Part shown: piece by piece, positions 962 through 64,000 of the stretch
Layout of the letters: every line of letters begins with the position of its first letter
Position numbering within the stretch: position 1 is the first letter of the stretch
Origin: Salinivirgaceae bacterium
GTDB taxonomy: Bacteria > Bacteroidota > Bacteroidia > Bacteroidales > SZUA-534
Length of the DNA: 64,000 bases
Direction: 5' to 3'
Assembly (NCBI GenBank): GCA_050179685.1
Contig: JBFXEW010000005.1
Coordinates: 13,911-77,910 of the forward strand
The notes under the pieces: model-generated
Told to the model about the DNA's origin: nothing
Seen by the model: only the letters and a program-made list of their open reading frames with translations
Database searches by the model: none
Made by a program: the position numbers and the translations under genes

Positions 962-2389
962 ATGAATAAAGATTACCACCAGGTTTGGAGCAATTGTTTA
1001 CGCGTAATTAAAGACAATGTTCCAGCTATAAGTTTTCGAACATGGTTTGAGCCCATTGTTCCTATTCGTGTCGATAAAAATGTACTAACCATTCAGGTAC
1101 CAAGTCCGTTCTTTTACGAATACCTTGAAGAACAATACATTGACATTTTAAGACGTACCTTGCGTAACGAACTGGGTGAGAATGCCAAATTGGAGTACAG
1201 TGTTATTATGGAAAACAATGTGTACTCAAACAATACCCCTTATACCGTTAAATTACCAACAAACGATCGTCGGGAATTAAGCAACAAACCCCTATCCTTG
1301 CCTCTTGACGAACAAAAAACAATAAAAAATCCGTTTATTATTCCGGGGATTCAAAAGTTACATATCGATCCCCAATTAAATCCATCGAACAACTTTAATA
1401 ATTTTGTTGAAGGAGAATGCAACCGTCTTGCACGTTCTGCTGGTTATGCCGTAGCAAACAATCCGGGTAAAACAGCTTTTAATCCATTGTTTCTGTATGG
1501 TTCATCGGGATTGGGAAAGTCGCATCTGGCCCAAGCCATTGGAATTGAAGTAAAAGAAAAATATCCGGAAAAAGTTGTGCTCTATGTAAATGGAAATAAA
1601 TTCCACACCCAATTTGTAGAGGCAATACTTAACAATAATAGAAACGATTTTGTGCACTTCTATCAGATGATTGATGTGTTAATTATTGATGATGTGCATG
1701 AGTTTGCCGGAAAAGAGAAAACCCAGGATATTTTCTTCCATATTTTTAACCACCTGCATCAGAACAGCAAACAGTTGATTCTTACATCCGATAAATCGCC
1801 TGTCGATTTGCAGGGAATGGAACAACGCTTGCTTTCGCGCTTTAAATGGGGGCTTTCGGCCGATTTGCAGGTACCCGATTATGAAACCCGGATTGCTATT
1901 TTAAAACAAAAAGTTTACAACGACGGCATAGAACTCACCGACGAAGTTGTGGAATATATATCGTCGCAAATTACTACAAACATTCGTGAGCTTGAAGGAG
2001 CGCTGATTTCGTTACTGGCTCAGAGTACCCTGAATAAAAAAGAAATTACCATCGATTTAGCCCGAAAGATGATTGATCGCCTGGTAAAAAATACCAAACG
2101 CGAAATCTCTATCGATTATATTCAAAAAGTAGTTTGCGATTATTTTAATATGCCGCCTGAGGTTATTAACTCAAAAACCCGCAAACGCGAAATTGTTCAG
2201 GCCCGGCAAATCGCCATGTTTTTTGCCAAAAGTCTTACCAAGTCTTCGTTGGCAACCATTGGCAGCCAGATTGGCGGAAAAGATCACGCTACCGTACTTC
2301 ATGCCTGTAAAACGGTTAATAACCTGATAGATACCGACAAGCGTTTTCGAGGGTTTATTGATGAAATAGAAAAGAAATTAAAAATATAA
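962..2389 (+). CDS. dnaA: chromosomal replication initiator protein DnaA
   Basis: 475 aa with Walker A GSSGLGKSHL, box IIDDVHEF and the C-terminal DNA-binding region ...IGGKDHATVLHACKTV... Confidence 0.97.
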   Translation: MNKDYHQVWSNCLRVIKDNVPAISFRTWFEPIVPIRVDKNVLTIQVPSPFFYEYLEEQYIDILRRTLRNELGENAKLEYSVIMENNVYSNNTPYTVKLPTNDRRELSNKPLSLPLDEQKTIKNPFIIPGIQKLHIDPQLNPSNNFNNFVEGECNRLARSAGYAVANNPGKTAFNPLFLYGSSGLGKSHLAQAIGIEVKEKYPEKVVLYVNGNKFHTQFVEAILNNNRNDFVHFYQMIDVLIIDDVHEFAGKEKTQDIFFHIFNHLHQNSKQLILTSDKSPVDLQGMEQRLLSRFKWGLSADLQVPDYETRIAILKQKVYNDGIELTDEVVEYISSQITTNIRELEGALISLLAQSTLNKKEITIDLARKMIDRLVKNTKREISIDYIQKVVCDYFNMPPEVINSKTRKREIVQARQIAMFFAKSLTKSSLATIGSQIGGKDHATVLHACKTVNNLIDTDKRFRGFIDEIEKKLKI

Positions 2390-2620: not shown

Positions 2621-4768
2621 ATGAAAGCATTACTGGCCTTATTGATATTCCTATTTAGTTTTGGAGCGCTTCAGCAAACTTTTTCTCAGGATGTTCAGGT
2701 TAATCGCTCAAACAATAAAGTAAGTCTCGGCGGAAAGCCCTATTATATTCACATTGTGCGCAAAGGTGAAACCTTGTTTGCCATAAGTCAGGCCTACCAG
2801 GTTCCGATTGATACTTTAAAAAAGGACAACTTGCATCTTACCACCGATATTAAAGTAAACCAATACATTAAAATAAGGATCCAGGAAGTAAAACAAGCAG
2901 CGGAACAAACTTTTAACTATCACAAAGTAGTAAAAGGTGATACGCCTTTTAATATAAGCAGAAAGTACCAACTATCCATCGATGAACTCTACCGGCACAA
3001 TCCGGATGCAAAACTCGGAATTCGAATCGGTGAATTGCTTAAAATACCTGCAAATCAGCCGGTAACTACTGTAAACGATACCGTGGATAATGAGCTTACT
3101 GCAAATACTCAAGCCACTTCAAGCGATACTTCGTTTATAACCCATGTGGTGAAACGAAAACAAACCAAATTTGGCATATCAGCCAGTTATAAAATTAGCA
3201 TTGAAGAACTTGAAGCAGCAAACCCGGGTTTAAAAGACCGGATGATTCAGCCCGGAGAACTGTTAAAGATTCCTCAAACTAAAAGTGATTTGCTTGAAAA
3301 TGAAGATTATGTTTATCACAAAGTTGCAAAACAGGAAACGCTGTTTGGACTGGCTAAAAAGTACGAGCTAAAAGAACGACATTTAATAAAAGCAAATCCT
3401 TTTCTTAAAGAGCGTGGCTTGCAGGAAGGCGATTTGCTTAAAATTGAACGTAATCCGATGACCGATTCCTTAAGCTTGGCCTCATTTACACCAGATACTG
3501 TAGTTCAGGAAAAAACACCAAAACCACAAGAACCAGTTATTCAAAAAGATAGTCTTATCCGACAAATTTGCCCGGTTCCGGAGCCCGATACGGTGACTAG
3601 CTATAAAGTAGCCTTGTTTTTACCACTTTACCTGAATATAAACGATACACTTGGAAAATTTGTCGATATTATTACAAAAGATGTCGATGGAAATGAAATA
3701 CTTGAGTCGGTTTTACGAAACGGAAAAATTGAAGATAAAATCTATCCCCGCTCAAAAATATTTTTGGAATTTTATCAGGGTGCTTTGTTGGCTTTAAAAG
3801 ACCTTAAAGAACTTGGCATTTCGCTCGAGGTACATGTTATCGATACCCGGAATGATAGTCTTTATATGGCCGAATTGCTTAAAACACGCGATTTTAGCGA
3901 CTTTAATCTGTTTATTGGGCCCGTATTTGGTGAATTATTAAGTCTGGTAGGCGATTATGCCTGGGAGCATCAGATAAATATTGTTTCTCCGCTTTCCATA
4001 AAAAGTGGCTTTATCGATCACAACCCATACGCATTCCAGGTTTCCCCCCCATTTAACGTGCAAATGCAACATGCATCAGAGTTTTTAAATAATTTTGATG
4101 TTAAGAACTATATTGTAATACACGATGGAAATAACCTGGATCAGGAGTATATTTCCTATTTCAAAGAACAGTTATTTTCACAAATGAACGAATCAAATTT
4201 CGATCAGATTAAGTACAATGAGGTTTTTTATTACGATGCTCAGGATAGTGTGCTTAAATCGGTATTTACTCCCGGAATGGAAAATATTGTAATTGTACCT
4301 TCGAGCAGTCAGGCTTTTGTAACCGATGTGATGGGAAAACTGAATGGCTACTCTTACGAATTTAATATTACCACCTTTGGACAACCGCGATGGGTCAGGT
4401 TTGAGAATATTGAACTCGATAACTTTCATAATACCCACACCCACATCTTTTCCAATTCGTACATCGATTATGGAACCAAAAATGTAATAGATTTTGTAAC
4501 GGAATACCGGAATCAATATAGCGCCGAACCCGATAAATATGCTTTTCAGGGTTATGATATTACCAAATATTTTTGTCAGGCTTTAAACCTTTACGGACAC
4601 GATTTCAGAAAATGCATTCACCAATACCGGCCTGAGCTTTTACAGACCCGTTTGTATTTTGTACCCTATTCTGAACAAGGTGGGTATCAAAACACGGCCA
4701 TTTACATCTTAGCATACACAAAAGATTACCGATTGATAAAGGCAGCATCCTATCCATCAGGCTTTTAG
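2621..4768 (+). CDS. secreted LysM-repeat protein with C-terminal periplasmic-binding-protein-like domain
   Basis: 715 aa with a signal peptide and four LysM-like repeats (GETLFAISQAYQV, GDTPFNISRKYQL, KQTKFGISASYKI, QETLFGLAKKYEL), followed by ~400 aa resembling a type-1 substrate-binding fold. Confidence 0.75.
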   Translation: MKALLALLIFLFSFGALQQTFSQDVQVNRSNNKVSLGGKPYYIHIVRKGETLFAISQAYQVPIDTLKKDNLHLTTDIKVNQYIKIRIQEVKQAAEQTFNYHKVVKGDTPFNISRKYQLSIDELYRHNPDAKLGIRIGELLKIPANQPVTTVNDTVDNELTANTQATSSDTSFITHVVKRKQTKFGISASYKISIEELEAANPGLKDRMIQPGELLKIPQTKSDLLENEDYVYHKVAKQETLFGLAKKYELKERHLIKANPFLKERGLQEGDLLKIERNPMTDSLSLASFTPDTVVQEKTPKPQEPVIQKDSLIRQICPVPEPDTVTSYKVALFLPLYLNINDTLGKFVDIITKDVDGNEILESVLRNGKIEDKIYPRSKIFLEFYQGALLALKDLKELGISLEVHVIDTRNDSLYMAELLKTRDFSDFNLFIGPVFGELLSLVGDYAWEHQINIVSPLSIKSGFIDHNPYAFQVSPPFNVQMQHASEFLNNFDVKNYIVIHDGNNLDQEYISYFKEQLFSQMNESNFDQIKYNEVFYYDAQDSVLKSVFTPGMENIVIVPSSSQAFVTDVMGKLNGYSYEFNITTFGQPRWVRFENIELDNFHNTHTHIFSNSYIDYGTKNVIDFVTEYRNQYSAEPDKYAFQGYDITKYFCQALNLYGHDFRKCIHQYRPELLQTRLYFVPYSEQGGYQNTAIYILAYTKDYRLIKAASYPSGF

Positions 4769-5095: not shown

Positions 5096-5112
5096 ACAAA
5101 TGTCACATTTGT
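5096..5112. promoter_or_regulatory. perfect palindrome ACAAATGT-C-ACATTTGT between convergent genes
   Basis: Read directly from the sequence. The same 8-mer recurs upstream of the HTH gene at 6712-6799. Confidence 0.25.
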
Positions 5113-5126
5113 AACGATAAATTCAG

Positions 5127-6164
5127 TTACTTTTGTAACGCATTTAAAAGTTTCTTATTAATCCTTTTGGCTATACCGGGCCCTTCGTAAATAAAGCCTG
5201 TATAAACCTGTACCAGACTGGCGCCTGCTTTTAATTTATCAAGCGCATCTTCAGGAGTAAAAACACCTCCTACACCAATAATGGGAAGTTTACCCTGGGT
5301 TTTATCGTTTATATATGCTATAAGCTCGGTAGAGCGCTCAGTAAGAGGCTTACCGCTGAGTCCACCATTGGCAATCCGAATAATATCTTCTTCCGGAGTA
5401 GTTAAACCTTGTCGCGTTACGCTTGTATTGCTTACCACAACACCATCAACACCAAGTCGTTCAACAACATCCAGGGTTTCATCCAACTGATGCGGGTTTA
5501 AATCGGGTGATATTTTTAAAAACACCGGTTTTTTTACCGACTGATTAGTCCGCCAATGCATTAATTCGTTTAATAATAACTCCAATTCTTCCTGATCCTG
5601 TAATTTATGCAAATCGCTAATATTGGGACAGCTTACATTAACCACAAGATAATCGACATAGGGATAAAGACCTGTAAAACAAGCCCTGTAGTCGTTTATA
5701 GCATCCTGATTTGGTGTCAGGGTATTTTTTCCGATGTTACCTCCAATTATCAGGCTGCTATTCCGCTTTTTAAGTCGTTCAATAGCGCTTTCCAAGCCAT
5801 TATTATTAAATCCCATCCGGTTTATTAAAGCATTGTCGGCAGGCAGACGGAACAATCGTGGTTTTGGATTTCCCTTTTGCGCAAGCGGGGTAACCGTACC
5901 TATTTCGACATGACCAAAACCAAAGCTTTCCAAAACATCATATACTTCGGCATTTTTATCGAAACCAGCTGCAACCCCTATTTTATTTGGAAATTTTATT
6001 CCGCACACCTCAGTTTCCATTTGTAAACATTCGCGATTGTATATTTTTGAAACCAACTTTTTAAAATAAAAAAAGCGAATAATCCGAAAGAAAAAGAAAA
6101 CAATGGCATGGGCTGTTTCAGGATTACATCTGAAAAATAAAGGGCGAATAAGGCGTTTATACAT
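5127..6164 (-). CDS. pyrD: dihydroorotate dehydrogenase (quinone), class 2
   Basis: 345 aa with an N-terminal membrane-association extension plus a TIM-barrel DHODH pattern (GFDKNAEV, NRMGFNN, GGVFTPEDA). Confidence 0.9.
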   Translation of the reverse strand: MYKRLIRPLFFRCNPETAHAIVFFFFRIIRFFYFKKLVSKIYNRECLQMETEVCGIKFPNKIGVAAGFDKNAEVYDVLESFGFGHVEIGTVTPLAQKGNPKPRLFRLPADNALINRMGFNNNGLESAIERLKKRNSSLIIGGNIGKNTLTPNQDAINDYRACFTGLYPYVDYLVVNVSCPNISDLHKLQDQEELELLLNELMHWRTNQSVKKPVFLKISPDLNPHQLDETLDVVERLGVDGVVVSNTSVTRQGLTTPEEDIIRIANGGLSGKPLTERSTELIAYINDKTQGKLPIIGVGGVFTPEDALDKLKAGASLVQVYTGFIYEGPGIAKRINKKLLNALQK

Positions 6165-32481: not shown

Positions 32482-33417
32482 TTACCTTGGCCCCATAAAC
32501 CTATCTCCGTTAAAATGAATCATGTGTTCAGGAAACTCCATTATCCAAACTTCGGTATCCCATGCAATCTCAGTAGTATGCTTTTTAAATTCTGAAAAAT
32601 TGGGAAATGCAGAAACATAAATCTTTCCTGCTATACAATCTTTTAGAAATTCTTCCAATTCAATAATTCTTTTCGGAGTCATTGGGCCATGTGAAGTTAC
32701 AGCCTCAATTAGATATAGCCAGTTCTTTGATTCGTCATAAATTACAATGTCTGGCAATTTGCTATGTTCTGTAATCGGAATTCCAATCCTTTCAAGAGTT
32801 TCTTTGTCTAAGTGTAAATCCTTTTTCTCTGTGTCTCCTACATAAAGCAAAGTAGAACCTTGTGCAAATCGTGAAGCAAACTCTTCCACAACCGCAGCCT
32901 GAACCTCATTGTGCTTTCCTGGTGATAGCATTAAAACGCTACCATCTGTAAGTTTTAAAGGAACTCTGGACATCTTACGGTCTTTACTGTACTTCTCCTT
33001 CAATCCTCCAATTTTAGAAGCAAAATTTTCTGATGCTTTTTTCCAATTTCTAGTTCTGTAAGTTTTTATCGTCTCAAGTGCTATCTCAGAAATTGCATAA
33101 TGTGCACGTGGACTATTTACCGGTAAATCAGGAATATCAGGATTATAATCAGCTATACCCGCTTGTACAAATTGGTGCAGAACTTGTCTCCTAAAGGTTT
33201 CTCTGGTATTTGGAGCATATTCTTTTTGATAGTTCTCAGAAATAAAATTCATTATTCCTTTGGAAACACCGTGACTTTGCCTGAAAGCTTTCGACCACTT
33301 ATCATTTTCTTTGATGTTACATAAAGCAAGTAAAGTATAACCAGAAATTTCATTTTGTTGAGCATCAGGCAACCCCAACTCTCGCAAAATCACCTGTGCT
33401 TCTTGAATTTTTGACAT
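32482..33417 (-). CDS. type II restriction endonuclease, BsuBI/PstI family
   Basis: 311 aa. The N-terminus AQVILRELGLPDAQQNEISGYTLLAL and YAPNTRETFRRQVLHQFVQAG match my memory of the BsuBI/PstI REase family. It is adjacent to an N6-A methyltransferase. Confidence 0.7.
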   Translation of the reverse strand: MSKIQEAQVILRELGLPDAQQNEISGYTLLALCNIKENDKWSKAFRQSHGVSKGIMNFISENYQKEYAPNTRETFRRQVLHQFVQAGIADYNPDIPDLPVNSPRAHYAISEIALETIKTYRTRNWKKASENFASKIGGLKEKYSKDRKMSRVPLKLTDGSVLMLSPGKHNEVQAAVVEEFASRFAQGSTLLYVGDTEKKDLHLDKETLERIGIPITEHSKLPDIVIYDESKNWLYLIEAVTSHGPMTPKRIIELEEFLKDCIAGKIYVSAFPNFSEFKKHTTEIAWDTEVWIMEFPEHMIHFNGDRFMGPR

Positions 33418-35032
33418 AAGATTTTTCTAAAAGGACTTCATTAACAATTGTATCAATAAGTTGCTTATCGGGATTTTTATGTTCTTTGATTTTATTTCCA
33501 ATTAAAACTATATCATCTAACTGCGGTATTTTAATTTGTTTTAATTCAGTTGCACCAACTTGTGTATTGCCATTAAATGTTCTGAAATAATTATCAAACA
33601 AATTGCTGCTATAAAGTGCAGAAATTCCCCAGATTTCATTTTCCGTTAAATCTCCGTTTGGACGATGTATATAATTTAAATGATTTTCAAAACCAACCAT
33701 TTCAATATCAAAATTTGATGAGAAAAATGGACAACAAACCAATCTGCTTTTATCATCTTTTGAACTAAATCGGCGAAGTAAAACATAGTTTTTATTCTTA
33801 AGCAGGACTTTTCTTGATTCTAATGAATTAACTATAAAACCTGGCTTATTACCTTTTTGTAGTGGATAAATAAATTCCATTTCTTTAATGTTATGCAACC
33901 AGATTAATGGAGATAGTGAGCCATTTATAGTGCCTTCTGTTTTTAGAAATTCAGTACACCGAAACGCAACAACTGGGCCTGTTGATATTTGAATATTGAA
34001 ATCATTCAGCGTGTTGTGCCAATTCTTGAAAATTTCAATTGTGCTAGCCTCCTTATCATTTGAAGGAATAAACAAAATCTTATCTTTTGATTTTAAATCT
34101 ATTAACGAATTGGTCTTAAAAACTTTTTCGGTTAAATTACTCAGGCCATTATTGCTTTCAGAAACTGTAATTTTTATTTCCGAATTTACCTTTTTTGTTG
34201 CACGAAGAATAATGTTTTCTTGAAGAACATTATCATTCTTGAACATTTTATTTCGGGATTCAAAGATGTGTATGTTTGAGATACTTACATCGTTGAAGAA
34301 AGATTGTCTAAAAGCTTTGAAATAATTTCCTGCCGCAAAACTTCTAGGTGTTATAAAAATTAATTCTCCGTCTTGTTTCAATAATTTCGCTGCCACGCCC
34401 ATAAACAAAGAATAGATATTAGGTTGCCCATATACTAAATCTTTTGCTGCAATTGCTCGTTTGTCGTTTTTAGAGATTTTAAAATATGGGGGATTAGAAA
34501 TTATATAATCGTACTGGTTTACTTTTTCAAATCCAAATAACGTTGACACATTGAATGCATTTGAGTTTTCAAGGACAAAATCAGTTCGATTGATTTGGTA
34601 TTTTAAATCGATATTTTTCTCTGCTAGCCAGGAAGCTAAAAAATCAATTACTTTTTGAGTAAGCGTTAAAACATTTTCATCTGTCTCAAATAGCGATAAT
34701 TCTATTTCCGTTATGTTTGATTTTTGTATCAGCTTTTCGATTAAAGAACATGTTAAAATTCCAGTGCCACAACCGGGGTCAAGAACTGAAATCTTACCTG
34801 ATTTTGGATCTGCTAAATTCCCCATAAAATCAGCTATCTGTTTTGGAGTAAAGAATTGTCCGTTATCTTTTTTATGTTTGTCAGATGTAGAGCATGCGTA
34901 TTCAAGTCCGATAAACTCAGCAAATTCAGAAGGTGTTTTATATTTTTCTTTTAACTCTATCATTATACAAAAGTAATCAATCTTAGGTGCGTTGGCAAAA
35001 ATTGCATTTTTTCTTTCAATTTTCATTTGCAC
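33365..35032 (-). CDS. N6-adenine DNA methyltransferase (Eco57I/PstI-methylase-like)
   Basis: 555 aa with GQFFTP, the SAM site VLDPGCGTGIL and catalytic NPPY (IISNPPYFK). It overlaps the REase start by 53 nt. The true start may be an internal Met. Confidence 0.8.
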   Translation of the reverse strand: MQMKIERKNAIFANAPKIDYFCIMIELKEKYKTPSEFAEFIGLEYACSTSDKHKKDNGQFFTPKQIADFMGNLADPKSGKISVLDPGCGTGILTCSLIEKLIQKSNITEIELSLFETDENVLTLTQKVIDFLASWLAEKNIDLKYQINRTDFVLENSNAFNVSTLFGFEKVNQYDYIISNPPYFKISKNDKRAIAAKDLVYGQPNIYSLFMGVAAKLLKQDGELIFITPRSFAAGNYFKAFRQSFFNDVSISNIHIFESRNKMFKNDNVLQENIILRATKKVNSEIKITVSESNNGLSNLTEKVFKTNSLIDLKSKDKILFIPSNDKEASTIEIFKNWHNTLNDFNIQISTGPVVAFRCTEFLKTEGTINGSLSPLIWLHNIKEMEFIYPLQKGNKPGFIVNSLESRKVLLKNKNYVLLRRFSSKDDKSRLVCCPFFSSNFDIEMVGFENHLNYIHRPNGDLTENEIWGISALYSSNLFDNYFRTFNGNTQVGATELKQIKIPQLDDIVLIGNKIKEHKNPDKQLIDTIVNEVLLEKSYVKNSRSTGDFARVGVA

Positions 35033-37502: not shown

Positions 37503-37660
37503 GTTTGTTTAGAGTTTAGATGTTAGAGATTAGATATTTGACTTGAGACTTAAGACTAGAGACTAGAAACCAGAAACCTGTCTCTGCTTACTCACTATTC
37601 ACTGTTCACTATTCACTATTCACTATTAACTATTCACTATTCATTGTTAATTGTTAATTC
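37503..37660 (-). repeat. heptad-array block (modules A-B-C read on the minus strand) abutting the methyltransferase start codon
   Basis: On the + strand: TAGAGAC/TAAGACT-type 7-mers (~37509-37578), TATTCAC-type 7-mers (~37591-37645) and TGTTAAT 7-mers (~37644-37660). Confidence 0.85.
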
Positions 37661-37800
37661 AATGTCGTTTAGTTAAGCAGACTTCACCCTCCGCCCTTCG
37701 GGCACCTCTCCGCCGCGGCGGAAGGACTAGCTCTGTTCCATCGTTGCAGGTATCCCCTTGAGGGGATTATAGGGGTGAATTTCTTTAACTAAACGACATT
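37661..37800. mobile_element. 140-bp element bounded by perfect 16-bp inverted repeats, nested inside a TGTTAAT array (MITE-like or long-stem RNA)
   Basis: AATGTCGTTTAGTTAA (37661-37676) is the inverted repeat of TTAACTAAACGACATT (37785-37800). The interior has GCCC-TTCG-GGC (37693-37703), the 14-bp palindrome TCCGCCGCGGCGGA (37709-37722) and ATCCCCT-TGA-GGGGAT. Confidence 0.4.
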
Positions 37801-37856
37801 AATTGTTAATTGTTAATTGCTAATTGTTCATTGTTAATTGCTAATTGTTAATTGTT
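37801..37856 (-). repeat. TGTTAAT/TGCTAAT heptad array (module A) containing the symporter stop codon
   Basis: Eight consecutive 7-mers. The symporter stop TAA is the complement of 37848-37850. Confidence 0.85.
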
Positions 37857-39305: not shown

Positions 39306-39596
39306 ACGTTGCTTTGTTTTAGGCAAACTAAGATAAGAAATTTCTGTTTGGTACAAAAAGACTTGCTGGTTGTTGGTTTTTAGAGATTAGACTTTAGACA
39401 TTAGACTAAAGACTTAAGACCAGAGACTTGAGATTAGAGATTAGAGACTAGAGACTAGAGACCAGAGACTAGAGACTAGAAACCAGAATCTTGTTAACTG
39501 CTTACTCACTTTTCACTTTTCATTATTCACTTTTCACTTTTCACTATTCACTATTCACTTTTCACTATTCACTTTTCACTGTTAATTGTTCATTGC

Positions 39597-39979
39597 TTTT
39601 AGGCTGAGGATTTCGAACTGCTGCCTGTGGACTGTGGACATGAAAGACCAACCCTCCGGGTTGAACAATAATAGCCGTAGGTAAAACCTACGGATTGATA
39701 ACCCACCAAGCCCGAACCCTGCAAGGGTTCAATAAATGCAAGATGTTTTGGAATCTTCGTAGCGTTTTCTGTGGACTGCCGACTATTGGCTACCGGCTGC
39801 TGGCGGTGCATGACAGACAGGTATTCCATGGCAAATTATTGCTTGCACCGCTTTTTGATTTGCATTCGCTAATTCTACCGACCTTCAACCCCTCCGGGGT
39901 TTTTGTATGTCTTACTACCTATTAATAATTATTAATTAGTTTTGCCGAATACTACCAACCAGGAACTGCTTGAAATCAG
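39597..39979. ncRNA. repeat core copy 1, candidate structured RNA (strand unresolved)
   Basis: Perfect hairpins at 39650-39662, 39675-39693, 39714-39730, 39803-39851 and 39887-39901 (+TTTT). No credible CDS. Confidence 0.3.
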
Positions 39980-40095
39980 TATATAGACATTAGACTAGAG
40001 ACTTGAGACTAGAGACTAGAAATCAGAATCTTGTTAACTGCTCACTCACTTTTCACTTTTCATTATTCACTATTCACTGTTAATTGTTCATTGCT

Positions 40096-40480
40096 ATTTG
40101 GCTGAGGACTTTGAACTATTGCCTTTGGGCTGTGGACATGAAAGACAAACCCGGAGGGTTGAACAATAATAGCCGTAGGTAAAACCTACGGATTGATAAC
40201 CCACCAAGCCCGAACCCTGCAAGGGTTCAATAAATGCAAGGTGTTTTGGAATCTTCGTAGTGTTTTCTGTGGACTGCCGACTATTGGCTACCGGCTGCTG
40301 GCGGTGCATGACAGACAGGTATTCCATGGCAAATTATTGCTTGCACCGCTTTTTGATTTGCATTCGCTAATTCTACCGACCTTCAACCCCTCCGGGGTTT
40401 TTGTATGTCTTACTACCTATTAATAATTATTAATTAGTTTTGCCGAATACTACCAACCAGGAACTGCTTGAAATTAGTAT
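40096..40480. ncRNA. repeat core copy 2, candidate structured RNA (strand unresolved)
   Basis: Same hairpin set as copy 1. Substitutions cluster in the first ~60 nt. Confidence 0.3.
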
Positions 40481-40596
40481 ATAGACATTAGACTAAAGAC
40501 TAGAGACTAGAGACTAGAAACCAGAAACCAACTGCGTACTCATTATTCACTTTTCACTATTCACTATTCACTATTCACTGTTAATTGTTCATTGCT

Positions 40597-40854
40597 TTTA
40601 GGCTGAGGATTTCGAACTGCTGCCTGTGGACTGTGGACATGAAATACAAACCCGGAGGGTTGAACAATAATAGCCGTAGGTAAAACCTACGGATTGATAA
40701 CCCACCAAGCCCGAACCCTGCAAGGGTTCAATAAATGCAAGATGTTTTGGAATCTTCGTAGCATTTTCTGTGGACTGCCGACTATTGGCTACCGGCTGCT
40801 GGCGGTGCATGACAGACAGGTATTCCATGGCAAATTATTGCTTGCACCGCTTTT
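40597..40854. ncRNA. repeat core copy 3 (truncated/diverged after 40854)
   Basis: Matches copies 1 and 2 up to CTTGCACCGCTTTT, then is replaced by other hairpins (CCCCGGG-TTCACA-CCCGGGG 40873-40892; AAACCC..GGGTTT 40904-40920). Confidence 0.3.
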
Positions 40855-40993
40855 AACCGGATAAAATACATTCCCCGGGTTCACACCCGGGGCTATTATA
40901 ATGAAACCCCTTCAGGGTTTTCGCCTTATTGTCGTAAGATGATTTGATTGAAGATTAATGATTTTCAATTATAATCCGTGAGAACTTCGTCGT

Positions 40994-41048
40994 TTTTGAT
41001 ATTCGATATTTGGTATTTGATTTTTGTTCATTGATAATTGCTAATTGC
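40994..41048 (-). repeat. heptad arrays (modules A and D read on the minus strand) just downstream of the OmpA-operon terminator
   Basis: + strand GATATTC GATATTT GGTATTT GATTTTT, then GTTCATT GATAATT GCTAATT. This is the reverse complement of the A-D arrangement at 63631-63715. Confidence 0.8.
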
Positions 41049-41078
41049 CTGATGCTGGCAGAAGACTCGAATCCTTAC

Positions 41079-41107
41079 AAAAAAAGGGAGCACCTTGCGG
41101 CGCTCCC
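41079..41107 (-). terminator. rho-independent terminator of the 41902->41134 operon
   Basis: On the minus strand GGGAGCGCC-GCAA-GGTGCTCCC is followed by TTTTTTT, 27 nt after the stop at 41134. Confidence 0.75.
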
Positions 41108-41133
41108 CCAAAATGGAATTCCCTACTGCTTTG

Positions 41134-41376
41134 TCATTCCAATTTTTCCTTCAATTCTTTTTCCAGTTTATTAACTTGTTGCTGCAACGAACTAAGCTGG
41201 TTTTTCAGTTTATCGTTTTCGTCCTGAATTTCGTTTAACTTTTGAGTGTAGATGGCCTTGTAATAAAAATAAGCAGTCAGGTAACCAATAAGTGCAGCTA
41301 CCAACAGTAGTATCACCATCTCGATAATAGACCCGGTGCGGGTTTGTGCCAAAATTATAGTCAATGTATTCATCAT
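41134..41376 (-). CDS. small single-pass membrane protein with C-terminal coiled coil
   Basis: 80 aa with TM segment IIEMVILLLVAALIGYLTAYFYY, then the heptad-like NEIQDENDKLKNQLSSLQQQVNKLEKELKEKLE. It starts 5 nt after the OmpA-like gene ends. Confidence 0.5.
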   Translation of the reverse strand: MMNTLTIILAQTRTGSIIEMVILLLVAALIGYLTAYFYYKAIYTQKLNEIQDENDKLKNQLSSLQQQVNKLEKELKEKLE

Positions 41377-41380
41377 GTCT

Positions 41381-41902
41381 TTATTTTAAGGTTATTTCTG
41401 CTCTTCTATTGTCAGCCCGCCCTTTTTGGGTGGCATTATCAGCTATGGGTTCAGTCTCTCCTTTCGACGAAATCTTGATACGTTCGGGAGCCAGTCCCTG
41501 GCCTTCGAACCAGTCTTGTACCGCCTGTGCCCTTTCCAGTCCCAGCTTTTGATTGTAAGCCTGGGTTCCAACGGCATCGGTGTGACCTACAATATCGAGG
41601 TAGCGTGTCGCTTCCTCATCCAGGTAGGGCTTTACTTTGTTCAGGTAAAGTTCCAACGCTGCTTTCGATTTGAGTACCGCTTTATCAAAATCGAAATGTG
41701 TTAGCTCTGTCCGGGTAATCTCATCGGTTAATGGTAGCTTTTCAGGTACTTGTACCACCAGGGTGTCTTTTACAAGCGGTTCGGCTTGAATGGCAGTGGC
41801 TTCAGGAATATCAATTCCTGTCTTTATTTTATTTACATACCACCAGGTGGCCAGCCATGCCCAAAGACAAAACACCAGAAATCCGGTAATTAAAATTCTC
41901 AT
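41381..41902 (-). CDS. OmpA/MotB-family peptidoglycan-binding protein with N-terminal TM anchor
   Basis: 173 aa. The segment VGHTDAVGTQAYNQKLGLERAQAV...NRRAEITLK is the OmpA_C-like signature. Confidence 0.8.
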   Translation of the reverse strand: MRILITGFLVFCLWAWLATWWYVNKIKTGIDIPEATAIQAEPLVKDTLVVQVPEKLPLTDEITRTELTHFDFDKAVLKSKAALELYLNKVKPYLDEEATRYLDIVGHTDAVGTQAYNQKLGLERAQAVQDWFEGQGLAPERIKISSKGETEPIADNATQKGRADNRRAEITLK

Positions 41903-42116
41903 AAGGCAGATAAATTAAATGAATAGTAAAAATCGCCCTAGCAATTTAACAAATTATTGGCAGAATACCAGCTAAATTTTTAATTTTTAATGCCTTGCCA
42001 AAGCAAAATCATTACTATTACCGACTGGCAAGTAATAAGTATGGGCCCGGGAATGAACAAGCAAGGCAGAAAATTGTACCTTTAGCACAGCATACCACAA
42101 ATAAAAATAGTTACTT

Positions 42117-42698
42117 ATGGAACCAACAAAACGCTGTGCCTGGGCCGAAAAACAGCTGGATGCCTACAAAGTTTATCACGATACCGAATGGGGCGTACCG
42201 GTGTACGACGATAAAAAACTTTTCGAATTCCTGATTCTGGAAGGTGCACAGGCTGGCTTATCCTGGCTTACCATCTTAAAACGGCGCGATGGCTACCGCA
42301 AGGCCTTTGCCGGTTTCGATGTGGAAAAGGTAGCCCGTTTCGATGCCAAGAAAGTGGAAGAGCTGATGCTGGATGCAGGCATCATACGCAATCGCCTGAA
42401 GATTGAGGCCGCTATATCGAATGCCAAAATCTTTTTAGCCATTCAAAAAGAATTCGGATCCTTTAGTAAGTACATGTGGAACTTTGTAAATGGCAAGCCC
42501 ATTCAAAATAAGTTCCAACACATTAGTGAATTACCGGCCACCACCCCGCTGTCGGATGCCATTTCGAAGGATTTAAAAAAGCGGGGTATGAAATTCGTGG
42601 GCTCCACCATAATTTACGCTCACATGCAGGCCACAGGCATGGTAAACGATCACACCACCGATTGCTTCAGGCACAAACAATTGGCAATTAACAATTAA
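42117..42698 (+). CDS. tag: DNA-3-methyladenine glycosylase I
   Basis: 193 aa with YHDTEWGVPVYDDKKLFEFLILEGAQAGLSW and C-terminal zinc-ligand residues (H..DC). Confidence 0.9.
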   Translation: MEPTKRCAWAEKQLDAYKVYHDTEWGVPVYDDKKLFEFLILEGAQAGLSWLTILKRRDGYRKAFAGFDVEKVARFDAKKVEELMLDAGIIRNRLKIEAAISNAKIFLAIQKEFGSFSKYMWNFVNGKPIQNKFQHISELPATTPLSDAISKDLKKRGMKFVGSTIIYAHMQATGMVNDHTTDCFRHKQLAINN

Positions 42699-43292
42699 CA
42701 ATGAGCAATGAGCAATGAGCAATTAACAATAAACAATGAGGTACCAGGTGACAGTCTTCAGCTTGCAGTTTACAGCCAAGGAACAATTAATAATGAGCAA
42801 TGGGCAATTAGCAATAGAACACTGAATAGTGAATAGTGAATAGTGAATAGTGAATAATGAATAAAAAAACAATGGATTAGTCGGCAGACTTCAGTTCGCA
42901 ACCTCAGATTAGCAGTAAACCCCGGAGGGGTCAGAGGTCGGTAGAATAATAGCTTTCTTCGATAATAGCGGTGCAAGCAGAAAGATTGCCATTCAAATCA
43001 AAAATACCATGCACCGCAACCAGTAAACAGCAAACAGTGGCCGTTTACAGCCAAAGAACAATTATCAATTAACAATTAACAATTATCAATTAACAATAAA
43101 CAATGAGGTACCAGGCGACAGTCTTCAGTTTGCAGTTTACAGCCAAGGAACAATTAATAATGAGCAATGGGCAATTAGCAATAGAACACTGAATAGTGAA
43201 TAGTGAAAAATAAGTAATAAATTAAGTCATGTGTCTTAAGTCTTGTGTCTTAAGTCTTAAGTCTAATGTCTAAAATCTAGCATCTAGAATCC
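42678..43292 (+). repeat. composite repeat region: heptad modules A, B, C, a 121-bp direct duplication (period 367) and a partial repeat core
   Basis: 42720-42840 matches 43087-43207 with 2 mismatches. The core fragment ~42867-43020 shares AACCCCGGAGGGGT, GGTCGGTAGAAT and the GCGGTGCA...TGCACCGC stem with the reverse complement of the 39.6-40.9 kb cores. The C-module TAAGTCT array ends 24 nt before blc. Confidence 0.9.
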
Positions 43293-43316
43293 AACAACAA
43301 TAAAACAACAGCAACT

Positions 43317-62345: not shown

Positions 62346-63632
62346 ATGATAAAACAAGTATTGTTTATCGTTCTGTTGTCGGTTACCTTAGTGGTTTTTG
62401 CCTTTACGGTAAACCGGCTTTGGAAGCTATTCCGGCTGACAAAAAAAACCCCTCCGATAAAAGACTGGGGCAAACGGTTTAACCTGACGCTGGCTGTTGC
62501 CTTTGGGCAAAGCAAAATTCTTCGCAAACCACTGATTGGCTTCCTCCACGCGCTGGTATTCTGGGGCTTTCTGGTTATCACGGTGGGCAGTATCGAAATG
62601 GTTATCGATGGTGTCTTTGGTCTGGAACGAGCCTTTGCCGGCAGTGGCTGGTTTTATAAGGTAATTACCGCTTCGGGCGATGTGTTTGCCTACATCATCG
62701 CCTTAGGAATCATTGCTTTTCTGGTTCGCAGGCAGTTTATGCAGATAAAACGCTTCAGCGGCATTGAACTGAAACCCAAGAATAAGCGCGATGCGAACCT
62801 GGCGCTGGCTATGATTCTCTTTCTGATGATTTCACTTATCGGAATTAATCTGGCTTACCTGAATCAAAAGCCTGAACCGGTGCTGGGTCTTTATCCGATT
62901 TCCGGTTTATTGGCCAACTATTGGCAAATAAATCTGACCCAGGCTCATGTAGTTTTTGAAGTAAGCTGGTGGAGTCACATTCTGTTGATATTTATTTTTG
63001 CGAACTACCTGCCCTACTCCAAGCACTTCCATGTGTTTATGTCGATTCCCAATGTCTTTTTCAGTAATCTGGAACCCCTGGGAAAACTTCCTAACATGGA
63101 AGCTGTAACCAAAGAAGTTCAGTTGATGCTGGGCGGCAATGCGTTTCAGGATACCGGCGACCAGGCTCCTGCCCGCTTTGGGGTAAAGGATGTGGAAGAT
63201 GTGAGTTGGAAAAATTATATGGATGCCTTAACCTGCACCCAGTGCGGACGTTGTACCGAGGTTTGTCCGGCCAACCTGACCGGCAAAAAGCTATCGCCGC
63301 GAAAAATATTTGTGGATCTGCGGAACCGGATGAACGAGAAAGGCCTGCAACTAATTAAGAACCCGGAATACACCGACCAGAAAGCACTGGTCAGCGACGA
63401 ATACATCAGCTACGAAGAGCTTTGGGCCTGTACCACCTGCAATGCCTGTGCCCAGGAATGTCCCCTGAATATCAGTCATCCGAACCTGATAATGGATATG
63501 CGGCGGTACCTGGTAATGGAAGAAGGACGCGCTCCGTCGGGTATTAATGCCATGTTTGCCAATATCGAAAACAACGGTGCTCCCTGGCAATTCTCACCCG
63601 AAGACCGTCTGGAATGGACGAAGGGGGATTGA
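62346..63632 (+). CDS. membrane-anchored 2x[4Fe-4S] ferredoxin-domain oxidoreductase subunit (HdrD/GlpC-like; candidate ETF:menaquinone oxidoreductase part 1)
   Basis: 428 aa with ~5 N-terminal TM helices, then CTQCGRCTEVCP and CTTCNACAQECP. It directly follows etfBA. Confidence 0.7.
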   Translation: MIKQVLFIVLLSVTLVVFAFTVNRLWKLFRLTKKTPPIKDWGKRFNLTLAVAFGQSKILRKPLIGFLHALVFWGFLVITVGSIEMVIDGVFGLERAFAGSGWFYKVITASGDVFAYIIALGIIAFLVRRQFMQIKRFSGIELKPKNKRDANLALAMILFLMISLIGINLAYLNQKPEPVLGLYPISGLLANYWQINLTQAHVVFEVSWWSHILLIFIFANYLPYSKHFHVFMSIPNVFFSNLEPLGKLPNMEAVTKEVQLMLGGNAFQDTGDQAPARFGVKDVEDVSWKNYMDALTCTQCGRCTEVCPANLTGKKLSPRKIFVDLRNRMNEKGLQLIKNPEYTDQKALVSDEYISYEELWACTTCNACAQECPLNISHPNLIMDMRRYLVMEEGRAPSGINAMFANIENNGAPWQFSPEDRLEWTKGD

Positions 63633-63804
63633 CAATGAGCAATTAACAATGAGCAATTAACAATGAATAATTATCAATGAACAATTATCAAATACCAAAA
63701 AATCAAATATCAAAAATTCTCAAGTATTAAGTCTAGAATCTAATTTCTAAAGTCTAAATTCTAGTTTCTAGAAGTCTAGCAACCAGAGACAAGAGACCAG
63801 AAAC
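63630..63804 (+). repeat. heptad arrays (modules A-D-C) filling the gap between the two Fe-S oxidoreductase genes
   Basis: CAATGAG/CAATTAA 7-mers start at the TGA stop (63630), followed by CAAATAC/CAAATAT-type, TAAGTCT/AAAGTCT/AGTTTCT-type and CAGAGAC AAGAGAC CAGAAAC. The ATG lies 42 nt later. Confidence 0.85.
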
Positions 63805-63846: not shown

Positions 63847-64000
63847 ATGAATCAAATACACGTACCGGTAATGGCCGAGCTGGCCGCAGCAGGAAAAAGC
63901 CCCGATATTCTTTACTGGGTGGGCTGTGCCGGCGCCTTCGACGAGCGTTATAAAAAAGTTTCGCGCTCGTTTGCCAAGCTGCTAAACCATGCAGGGGTTA
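63847..64000 (+). CDS. (Fe-S)-binding CCG-domain protein, N-terminal part (3' end outside window)
   Basis: MNQIHVPVMAEL...ILYWVGCAGAFDERYKK is the cysteine-rich CCG-domain start typical of HdrD/GlpC-like partners. The frame is open to the window end. Confidence 0.65.
   Translation, partial: MNQIHVPVMAELAAAGKSPDILYWVGCAGAFDERYKKVSRSFAKLLNHAGV

Follow-up and report, generated by a model that had tools for sequence, protein, structure and literature searches.

Heptanucleotide arrays and short GC-rich palindromes in the tag-blc spacer of a Salinivirgaceae bacterium: a probable mosaic intergenic repeat

The 618-bp tag-blc spacer of an uncultured Salinivirgaceae bacterium contains a long direct repeat on both sides of a GC-rich core, and the question is what kind of DNA this is: a modular RNA or a decaying mobile element, as a first-pass annotation of the letters alone had proposed, or an ordinary intergenic repeat. 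The spacer was studied within a window (the whole stretch of DNA that was analysed) of 64,000 nucleotides with a GC content of 40.8% (assembly GCA_050179685.1, contig JBFXEW010000005.1, positions 13,911 to 77,910), to which all coordinates refer unless a locus number with the prefix L is given. The proteins encoded on the two sides were assigned by Pfam to PF03352 (Tag) and PF08212 (the lipocalin Blc), respectively. The spacer is probably a locus of a lineage-specific mosaic intergenic repeat, in which heptamer arrays are combined with palindromes like those of repetitive extragenic palindromic (REP) sequences, in the manner of bacterial interspersed mosaic elements (BIMEs) and short tandemly repeated repetitive (STRR) sequences, and which grows by slippage and by unequal or ectopic recombination. 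The family is made of 7-nt arrays with a drifting consensus and of short GC-rich palindromic modules, namely a CCCC/GGGG hairpin with a GGTCGGTAGAAT box, a GCGGTGCA...TGCACCGC stem-loop, a three-hairpin block and a double hairpin of the Acido-Lenti-1 type. It is an ordinary kind of bacterial repeat, comparable to the BIMEs of enterobacteria and to cyanobacterial mosaics of heptamer arrays and small repeats, and a new family, of which no description was found in searches of Rfam and the literature.

The direct repeats of 121 nt were verified as first described, at 42720-42840 and 43087-43207 with an offset of 367 and two mismatches (T at 42749 vs C at 43116, and C at 42762 vs T at 43129, respectively). 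When array-length noise was allowed, the repeat extended to about 170 nt (~42685-42855 vs 43052-43222, 90% identity). The 121-nt repeat is 7-periodic in one continuous register, with a lag-7 identity of 0.62 vs 0.24 at other lags. The motif GTTTACAGCCAA[AG]GAACAATTA recurs three times, as had been noticed, at 42768, 43043 and 43135; TAGTCGGCAG (42878), AACCCCGGAGGGGT (42918), GGTCGGTAGAAT (42936), GCGGTGCA (42968) and TGCACCGC (43010) occur once apiece in the gap. The parts of the gap are as follows, with arrays defined by Tandem Repeats Finder (TRF) where copy numbers are given:

42676-42739, plus strand: CAAT-type heptamer array (AACAATT/AGCAATG...), TRF period 7, 8.9 copies
42720-42840, plus strand: direct repeat copy 1, 121 nt, two mismatches to 43087-43207, extended form ~42685-42855
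42740-42781, plus strand: CAG-type heptamer module copy 1 (GGTACCAGGTGACAGTCTTCAGCTTGCAGTTTACAGCCAAGG), ending in the junction motif GTTTACAGCCAAGGAACAATTA that starts at 42768
42823-42863, plus strand: TGAATAG heptamer array, 5.9 copies (TRF)
42878-42916, plus strand: 5' part of the short core, 7-periodic (TAGTCGG CAGACTT CAGTTCG CAACCTC AGATTAG CAGT)
42917-42931, plus strand: small GC hairpin AAACCCCGGAGGGGT, CCCC/GGGG stem, GGA loop
42936-42967, plus strand: GGTCGGTAGAAT box and A-rich linker
42968-43017, plus strand: stem-loop, 8-bp stem GCGGTGCA/TGCACCGC, 34-nt loop, member of a 17-copy alignment
43018-43051, plus strand: CAG-type heptamers 3' of the stem-loop (AACCAGT AAACAGC AAACAGT...), continuing into the junction motif at 43043 (second occurrence)
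43087-43207, plus strand: direct repeat copy 2, extended form 43052-43222, containing a CAAT array, the second copy of the CAG module (43107-43148), CAAT heptamers and TGAATAG units in tandem
43222-43291, plus strand: GTCTTAA/GTCTAAA/TCTAGAA heptamer arrays, then a CAA-rich leader (43291-43316) up to the start codon of blc (ATG, 43317)

Taken as a whole, the gap consists of 1.5 tandem copies of a unit of 367 bp, made up of an array block and a short core. The CAAT-type array also supplies the final ~7 codons of tag together with its TAA stop (42696-42698), and heptamer units bearing TAA, TGA or TAG close every reading frame within 21 nt (42676-42698).

The sequence between the two repeat copies had been taken for a rearranged and inverted fragment of the cores at 39.6-40.9 kb. 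These cores belong to tandem units upstream of the SSF symporter gene:

39548-40854, minus strand: long unit of 498 bp in 2.6 tandem copies (TRF period 498, 94%; units 94-97% identical)

Each long unit contains the hairpin, box and stem-loop of the gap together with a three-hairpin insert of ~155 nt and heptamer arrays; the three-hairpin block sits within CAG heptamers, and long arrays separate the units. All five gap motifs were found there as reverse complements (AACCCCGGAGGGGT and GGTCGGTAGAAT in only two of the three units), and gap positions 42917-43050 were aligned with the minus strand of 39902-39769 and 40400-40267 (135 nt, 67%, E-value 5e-13). Because this alignment is colinear over 135 nt, the motifs are not shared by chance. 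The homology and its opposite genomic orientation were therefore borne out, and the rearrangement was not: in the gap, the CAG-heptamer end of one unit directly abuts the beginning of the next, with the separating arrays missing, and the two arrangements differ in unit phase. The supposed fragment is a standard short unit composed of hairpin, GGTCGGTAGAAT box, 8-bp stem-loop and CAG-type heptamers. Long and short versions do exist, and the central part of ~150 nt is missing from the gap as stated, with TAGTCGGCAG and CAGTTCG spaced by ~155 nt in the tandem units vs 4 nt in the gap. The same 8-bp stem closes a loop of 34 nt in the gap and of 33 nt in the tandem units, as reported; the loop is neither of different sequence nor free, since 19 of its 34 positions (56%) agree and the blocks AAGCA, TTGCCAT and CATG are kept.

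Two further observations concern the tandem units. The loop of one hairpin is flipped between copies, reading CCC-TCC-GGG in unit 1 (39648-39664) and CCC-GGA-GGG in units 2 and 3 (40148-40160 and 40649-40661, respectively) as well as in the related contig L025; such a flip is typical of template switching in a DNA palindrome. An ATG-started open reading frame (ORF) of 76-77 aa recurs in all three units and was rejected as a real gene: it has no Pfam family, no ORF of at least 70 aa runs across the homologous units of the second genome described below, and its one homolog among 5.8 billion proteins is the orthologous copy in L025.

The age of these parts at their present places was read from relatives that keep the gene order methyltransferase (MT)-SSF-79aa-OmpA / tag-blc. 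Their tag-blc gaps are as follows:

L025 (tag 94.8% nucleotide identity): flanks identical at 111/111 and 149/154 positions, ~185 bp of heptamers only, without CAG module, core or duplication
L007 (Tag 91% amino-acid identity): ~184 bp of heptamers
L010 (Tag 91% amino-acid identity): 153 bp of heptamers
L011 (Tag 74% amino-acid identity): 106 bp, no heptamers

The short core was absent from the tag-blc gap in L025, L007, L010 and L011, and the CAG module was missing from L025, L007 and L010. Since relatives with the same flanking genes carry short arrays only, the core, the CAG module and the ~170-nt duplication are recent gains; L025, L007 and L010 represent empty sites of the kind used to recognize miniature inverted-repeat transposable elements (MITEs), and the ends of the core are not sharply defined against L025 and fall within arrays. 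The SSF spacer measures 1777 bp in the window; in L010 it has 272 bp, with a short array between flanks that are the same, in L007 181 bp without an array, and in L025 one 498-bp unit, 97.6% identical to window unit 2, vs 2.6 units in the window. For the MT-SSF spacer the lengths are 345 bp (window) and 86 bp (L007). The window, L025, L007 and L010 hence differ in all three shared spacers, which indicates rapid array turnover between close relatives. The arrays are hence ancestral to the close clade, and the hairpin cores and duplications recent, lineage-variable gains.

One other assembly of this exact sequence was found, the Logan contig L001 (SRR27751817), which is identical to 40901-42748. 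Its two ends fall within the Acido-Lenti-1-like module and within the first copy of the 121-nt repeat, respectively, which would be natural if the sample contains several copies of both. A change unconnected with the repeats was also seen against the syntenic L007: a pair of a BsuBI/PstI-type restriction endonuclease and an Eco57I/N6 methylase (32482-35032, minus strand) lies between the FAD-binding and DUF4153 genes, and because these two genes are adjacent in L007 the restriction-modification system is a lineage-specific insertion.

Across the window, period-7 tandem arrays (TRF, 3-11 copies) were found in four spacers only (37503-37847, 39357-41133, 42676-43316 and 63628-63780), with a lag-7 identity of 0.62-0.71 vs 0.24 at other lags. 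Being tandem intergenic units of 7 nt in three or more copies, they are arrays of the type of long simple sequence repeats (LSSRs; Mrazek 2007, as cited in PMC4679880) and STRR. The genes flanking the four spacers encode a methyltransferase, the SSF symporter, an 80-aa ORF, OmpA, Tag and the lipocalin Blc. Read in gene sense, the order is the same in 4/4 spacers: stop codon, CAATTAA/CAATGAG, (xxxxCAG), TGAATAG, GTCTTAA/TCTAGAA, CAA-rich leader and ATG. The fourth spacer contains arrays alone:

63628-63780, plus strand: heptamer arrays only, CAAT-type and then TCTAG-type, ending before the ATG at 63847

The co-orientation of cores and arrays with the local genes, as first noticed, held in all four window spacers; it is not absolute, since the copy at L003 in the second genome is antisense to both of its neighbours, DUF6048 and a BNR protein. 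The orientation of the stem-loop relative to the arrays is constant in 16/16 copies. The window starts at dnaA (962-2389, plus strand); the replication origin is probably near the window start, and most genes are on the presumed leading strand. Because the repeats flip with the genes within 1.5 kb of each other in a window that starts at dnaA, their orientation tracks transcription, not replication.

For the SSF spacer, a strong intrinsic terminator is found after the 80-aa gene (41109-41084, minus strand), and the sequence just upstream of the SSF ATG (~39357-39415), conserved in L007, L010 and L025, is a putative promoter. The 1.7 kb of repeats in this spacer appear to lie between transcription units, bracketed by the terminator and that putative promoter, which argues there against a role inside a mature mRNA. 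The tag-blc spacer has no terminator and no TAnnTTTG on its sense strand and is therefore probably co-transcribed. A search of the four spacers in sense orientation gave no Bacteroidetes -7 motif TAnnTTTG, and a scan for sigma-70 promoters and terminators was uninformative on strand, terminator-like hairpins being present on both.

Copies outside the close clade were found in one genome only. The contig scan for the stem-loop matched the metagenome-assembled genome (MAG) Salinivirgaceae bacterium CA_2019_NHSR_8 (JBFWMB01), on five contigs (L002-L006), which is a different species, as it has no nucleotide similarity to the window apart from the repeats. Twelve stem-loop copies in the MAG and four in the window, 16 in total, were recovered by nhmmer, together with two inverted variants (GCGGGGCA...TGCCCCGC) inside a MAG module of ~270 nt; the survey of copies thus covers 64 kb of the source genome and five loci of one MAG. 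The short arrangement of the gap recurs at L002 176-349 (175 nt, 72%, E-value 1e-18), to which the gap core is colinear. In the long form of the MAG, an Acido-Lenti-1-like double hairpin is inserted in the linker between the GGTCGGTAGAAT box and the stem-loop. Module orders vary between the window and L002-L006 (six loci, two genomes), so that palindromes and other motifs form mosaic clusters as in BIMEs. Other parts of the gap also have relatives in the MAG: the CAG-type module at L002 ~920-960, the 42878-42916 segment in the ..CCTCAGATTAGCA.. of the ~270-nt module (there called M11; L005 ~830-880 and L004, judged by eye), and the small GC hairpin in the variants GCCCC-AGC-GGGGT/C and GCCCT-CGC-GGGGC, with decayed versions in L005 (judged by eye).

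The double hairpin of the MAG modules was matched by the Rfam model Acido-Lenti-1 (RF01687) at 40.7-43.5 bits, above its gathering score of 37 and antisense to the arrays. The matches are at L005 82-128 and 473-519, L002 707-753 and L006 6927-6973, and there is one in the window, all of them opposite to the array orientation:

40873-40919, plus strand, opposite to the local genes: Acido-Lenti-1-like double hairpin, 33.6 bits, below the gathering score of 37, E-value 7e-5

The covariance model gave no match in 42678-43292. These placements suggest that the 'Acido-Lenti-1 RNAs' concerned may be repeat modules rather than single-copy small-RNA genes. At the gathering threshold, nothing from Rfam was found in the whole window, which also has no tRNA or tmRNA genes; at E<=1, 37.3-43.5 kb gave only the sub-threshold Acido-Lenti-1 match and a chance match to sroB. 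Joint Genome Institute (JGI) metagenomes were scanned with an anchor pattern that left the stem variable and was aimed at compensatory variants, and the 12 matches were all chance ones without the stem. No stem-loop copies were found in the viral contigs described below. The hairpin-rich GC module of ~270 nt is present at L005 ~690-960, L004 ~3150-3420 and L006 ~5100-5290, is not in the window and has no Rfam family; its inverted stem-loop variant carries the only compensatory change in the 8-bp stem.

An alignment of the stem-loop copies for compensatory changes had been proposed by the first-pass annotation. Pairing of the 8-bp stem reaches 98.5% over the 17 copies that were aligned: of its eight pairs, five are invariant, one has a single G·U and one is broken twice (G·A and U·C). 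One UA-to-GC pair change was found, in the two inverted variants only, which amounts to one compensatory event. Within the loop, the blocks AAGCA, TTGCCATGRAAT and CATG are conserved. In the three-hairpin block (8 copies), the stems are mostly invariant and the loops and linkers variable. The fold z-scores of the gap core were -2.15 and -2.13 on the two strands, respectively, and that of the long core was about -0.9; there is no strand or structure signal beyond the local palindromes. The data show palindromes that are maintained, not a conserved RNA fold. A modular RNA may exist but is not shown by one compensatory event in 17 copies and z-scores of about -2.1 on both strands, with nothing conserved at the orthologous locus. 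The description as a decaying mobile element comes close to the reading preferred here, in that core and duplication are absent from three relatives, stems are broken and the small hairpins of L005 are decayed.

No transposase, REP-associated tyrosine transposase (RAYT) or integrase was found among the ~48 window ORFs scanned against Pfam, where such a gene could lie anywhere in the genome. The gap core has only a weak terminal inverted repeat (a 12-nt, 83% pair, 42909-42920 / 43043-43054) and no short target-site duplication, its flanks being array blocks of ~170 nt. A separate element of another kind lies nearby:

37661-37800, inside a CAATTAA array: GC-rich element of 140 bp with perfect 16-bp terminal inverted repeats (AATGTCGTTTAGTTAA / TTAACTAAACGACATT)

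Its homologs were found at L004 ~2850-2950, where the element faces the other way with respect to the arrays, and at L011 9983-10096, 10537-10562 and 10687-10718; L011 carries them yet has no heptamer arrays. No Rfam family was found for it, and these features fit an independent, true MITE.

Arrays of (CAATTAA)n were also observed in 40 viral contigs of IMG/VR (L026-L065), the GC content of which ranges from 21 to 67%. Two of them, L030 and L052, encode a major head protein, an endolysin and a tape measure and are genuine phages; their heptamer arrays amount to 1.1-1.6 kb and fill almost all spacers, and the unit types CAATTAA, CAATGAx and CAGTGAr are common to them and the window. In 18 of the 40 contigs the array ends at most 40 nt upstream of a same-strand ORF start, vs 8 of 40 in the other direction. 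This placement resembles the omega leader of tobacco mosaic virus and S1-dependent leaders, and the bias keeps alive the idea that such arrays may be leaders in Shine-Dalgarno-poor systems.

The following course of events would account for the tag-blc gap under the preferred reading. Arrays would lengthen and shorten through replication slippage, and hairpin units would move between spacers via ectopic recombination or gene conversion, with the arrays as homology; spread by array homology would explain the single orientation of the stem-loop relative to the arrays. Unequal crossing-over between the CAAT arrays flanking the core would have produced the 1.5-copy tandem repeat of 367 bp and, likewise, the 2.6-copy repeat of 498 bp upstream of the SSF gene. 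Signs of turnover at the DNA level are the TCC/GGA loop flip, the broken stems (G·A and U·C) and the decayed small hairpins of L005. Most of the repeat DNA would be selfish or neutral. REP-mediated mRNA stabilisation is a known effect; where co-transcribed, the hairpins probably act like REP/BIME by local RNA stability or insulation, dispensably at tag-blc, and an effect of this kind on the tag-blc transcript would be plausible.

Several points weigh against this reading. No recombination intermediate or donor copy was seen, and the coverage of the source genome is 64 kb only; the relatives are short-read assemblies in which tandem copies may be collapsed, which does not explain the absence of the unique core sequence. 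The repeat-bearing spacers are co-oriented with the flanking genes in 4/4 cases in the window, and 4/5 MAG loci with at least one neighbouring gene. The stems are far better conserved than the linkers across two species and the loops vary, which suggests that the palindromes themselves may be maintained; compensatory changes occur in 1/8 pairs of the stem-loop and 3/25 pairs of the three-hairpin block, in few and dependent copies, and wobbles are mostly on the gene-sense strand (~6 G·U vs 1 A·C, in few and related copies). In a rival reading, arrays and hairpins would be functional cis-acting RNA elements of tag-blc and neighbouring transcripts, the A-rich, unstructured arrays binding a single-strand RNA-binding protein of the S1/Csp type, the GC hairpins setting mRNA 3' ends and stability or uncoupling cistrons, and the duplication tuning expression. 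Co-orientation in a window where gene direction flips within 1.5 kb, the fixed stop-to-start succession of array types, the conservation of stems over linkers with the weak sense-strand G·U bias, the 18 vs 8 placement of viral (CAATTAA)n arrays just upstream of same-strand ORF starts (40 contigs) and the S1, Csp or CsrA binding proposed by MacGregor (2015, PMC4679880) for analogous heptamer arrays all speak for it. It is nevertheless unlikely: core and duplication are missing from this gap in three close relatives and so are not required for tag-blc expression, the SSF-spacer repeats fall outside mature mRNAs if the promoter is placed correctly, the L003 copy is antisense to both neighbours, and fold z-scores are equal on both strands. 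A bolder form, in which the arrays are a sequence-specific RNA-level 'grammar' common to Shine-Dalgarno-poor Bacteroidota and phages, with ordered platforms for S1 or other single-strand RNA-binding proteins that set downstream translation and hairpins including Acido-Lenti-1 as selected punctuation, is considered decidedly improbable; if it were true, the tag-blc duplication would be a recent regulatory change, not junk.

Movement of the GC-rich units as non-autonomous transposable elements like MITEs or REPINs (inverted REP doublets), with a transposase elsewhere and the arrays as mere preferred targets, would agree with the presence/absence polymorphism between conserved flanks, the many dispersed copies in two genomes, the nearby 140-bp element with its 16-bp inverted repeats in both orientations and also in an array-free genome, and the fact that REP hairpins are known substrates of RAYT transposases (PMC3116915). 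It is quite unlikely, as the gap core has no target-site duplication or terminal inverted repeats beyond the weak 12-nt pair, its borders against L025 are imprecise and within arrays, and the stem-loop keeps one orientation to the arrays in 16/16 copies; the missing transposase, RAYT or integrase is weak evidence, since the gene could be elsewhere in the genome. That each unit is an independent antisense small-RNA gene in the Acido-Lenti-1 orientation, with its own promoter and a hairpin-plus-U terminator, is very unlikely. The Acido-Lenti-1 matches do lie opposite to arrays and genes, above the Rfam threshold in the MAG, and the antisense strand has AACCCCTCCGGGGTT then TTTTGTATG, and TGCACCGC then TTTTT, with plus-strand TAnnTTTG motifs (TAGTTTTG) at 39937 and 40435 that precede the tandem units. 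Set against this, the gap copy has no Acido-Lenti-1 match and its one match to the antisense promoter motif is inside the loop, the wobble bias favours the other strand, the units are missing from relatives, and the TTTG box is 35 nt upstream of the TAnnTTTG motif, a spacing that exceeds the one expected of Bacteroidetes promoters. Finally, the duplication as a product of metagenome assembly, or the 76-77-aa ORFs as real genes, can hardly be credited. The window comes from a MAG contig, and the ORFs recur in all three tandem units; the repeat copies, however, differ at 2 positions and in array length, the independent Logan contig is an exact match to 40901-42748 and ends within the repeat, and the ORFs have no Pfam family, one homolog (the L025 ortholog) in 5.8 billion proteins and no counterpart of at least 70 aa over the MAG units.

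The mosaic repeat matters in several ways. As a module of a dispersed repeat, Acido-Lenti-1 bears here on the same orphan motif elsewhere, e.g. beside Tannerella protease genes (bioRxiv 10.64898/2026.02.09.704811). Such repeats break short-read assemblies, swell spacers from ~150 bp to 0.6-1.8 kb among near-identical relatives and create spurious 76-aa ORFs. If the arrays act on RNA, they would be of relevance to translation initiation free of Shine-Dalgarno sequences.

Among known systems, the cyanobacterial STRR sequences are comparable as heptanucleotide tandem arrays. In Nostoc punctiforme, small palindromic modules reportedly described by Elhai and colleagues in 2008 lie in or are flanked by heptameric repeats in a mosaic; they belong to another phylum and have other sequences, and are a lead, not a test. 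The heptanucleotide arrays of Beggiatoaceae, cyanobacteria and some Bacteroidetes (MacGregor 2015, PMC4679880) are also made of intergenic 7-nt units, several types of which share a spacer and most of which run 'forward' with respect to the downstream ORF, and are absent or shorter in the syntenic spacers of relatives, with contigs that break in arrays; those of other Bacteroidetes vary among close relatives and are 'forward' to the downstream ORF as well. The units there include TAACTGA, whereas those of the window are CAATTAA, TGAATAG, GTCTTAA and xxxxCAG, in a fixed stop-to-start order and interleaved with GC-rich hairpins. Acido-Lenti-1 (RF01687; Weinberg 2010, PMC2864571) is shared through the double hairpin of the MAG long units, above the gathering score; here it is one module of a repeat mosaic and no free-standing gene, and the tag-blc gap has no copy. 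The MITE of Porphyromonas gingivalis that carries a minisatellite (PMC4596501) is also a Bacteroidota intergenic mobile-element scaffold with tandem repeats; its terminal inverted repeats surround the internal minisatellite, whereas at the gap core terminal inverted repeats and a target-site duplication are both lacking. From the REP, BIME and REPIN sequences of Proteobacteria (PMC3116915) the Salinivirgaceae palindromes differ in phylum and sequence, in being embedded in long heptanucleotide arrays, and in having no RAYT in the sequence examined and no inverted REP doublet at the gap, where the stem-loop is single and inverted variants occur only in another module of the MAG. REP sequences reach hundreds of copies per genome, and 16 stem-loop copies were counted in the 64 kb and five MAG loci surveyed. 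The 42917-42931 hairpin and the 42968-43017 stem-loop are, like REP sequences, imperfect palindromes of 20-60 nt outside genes, and as in those systems they are short, extragenic and multi-copy, are clustered in mosaics or tandems between co-directional genes and vary among close relatives.

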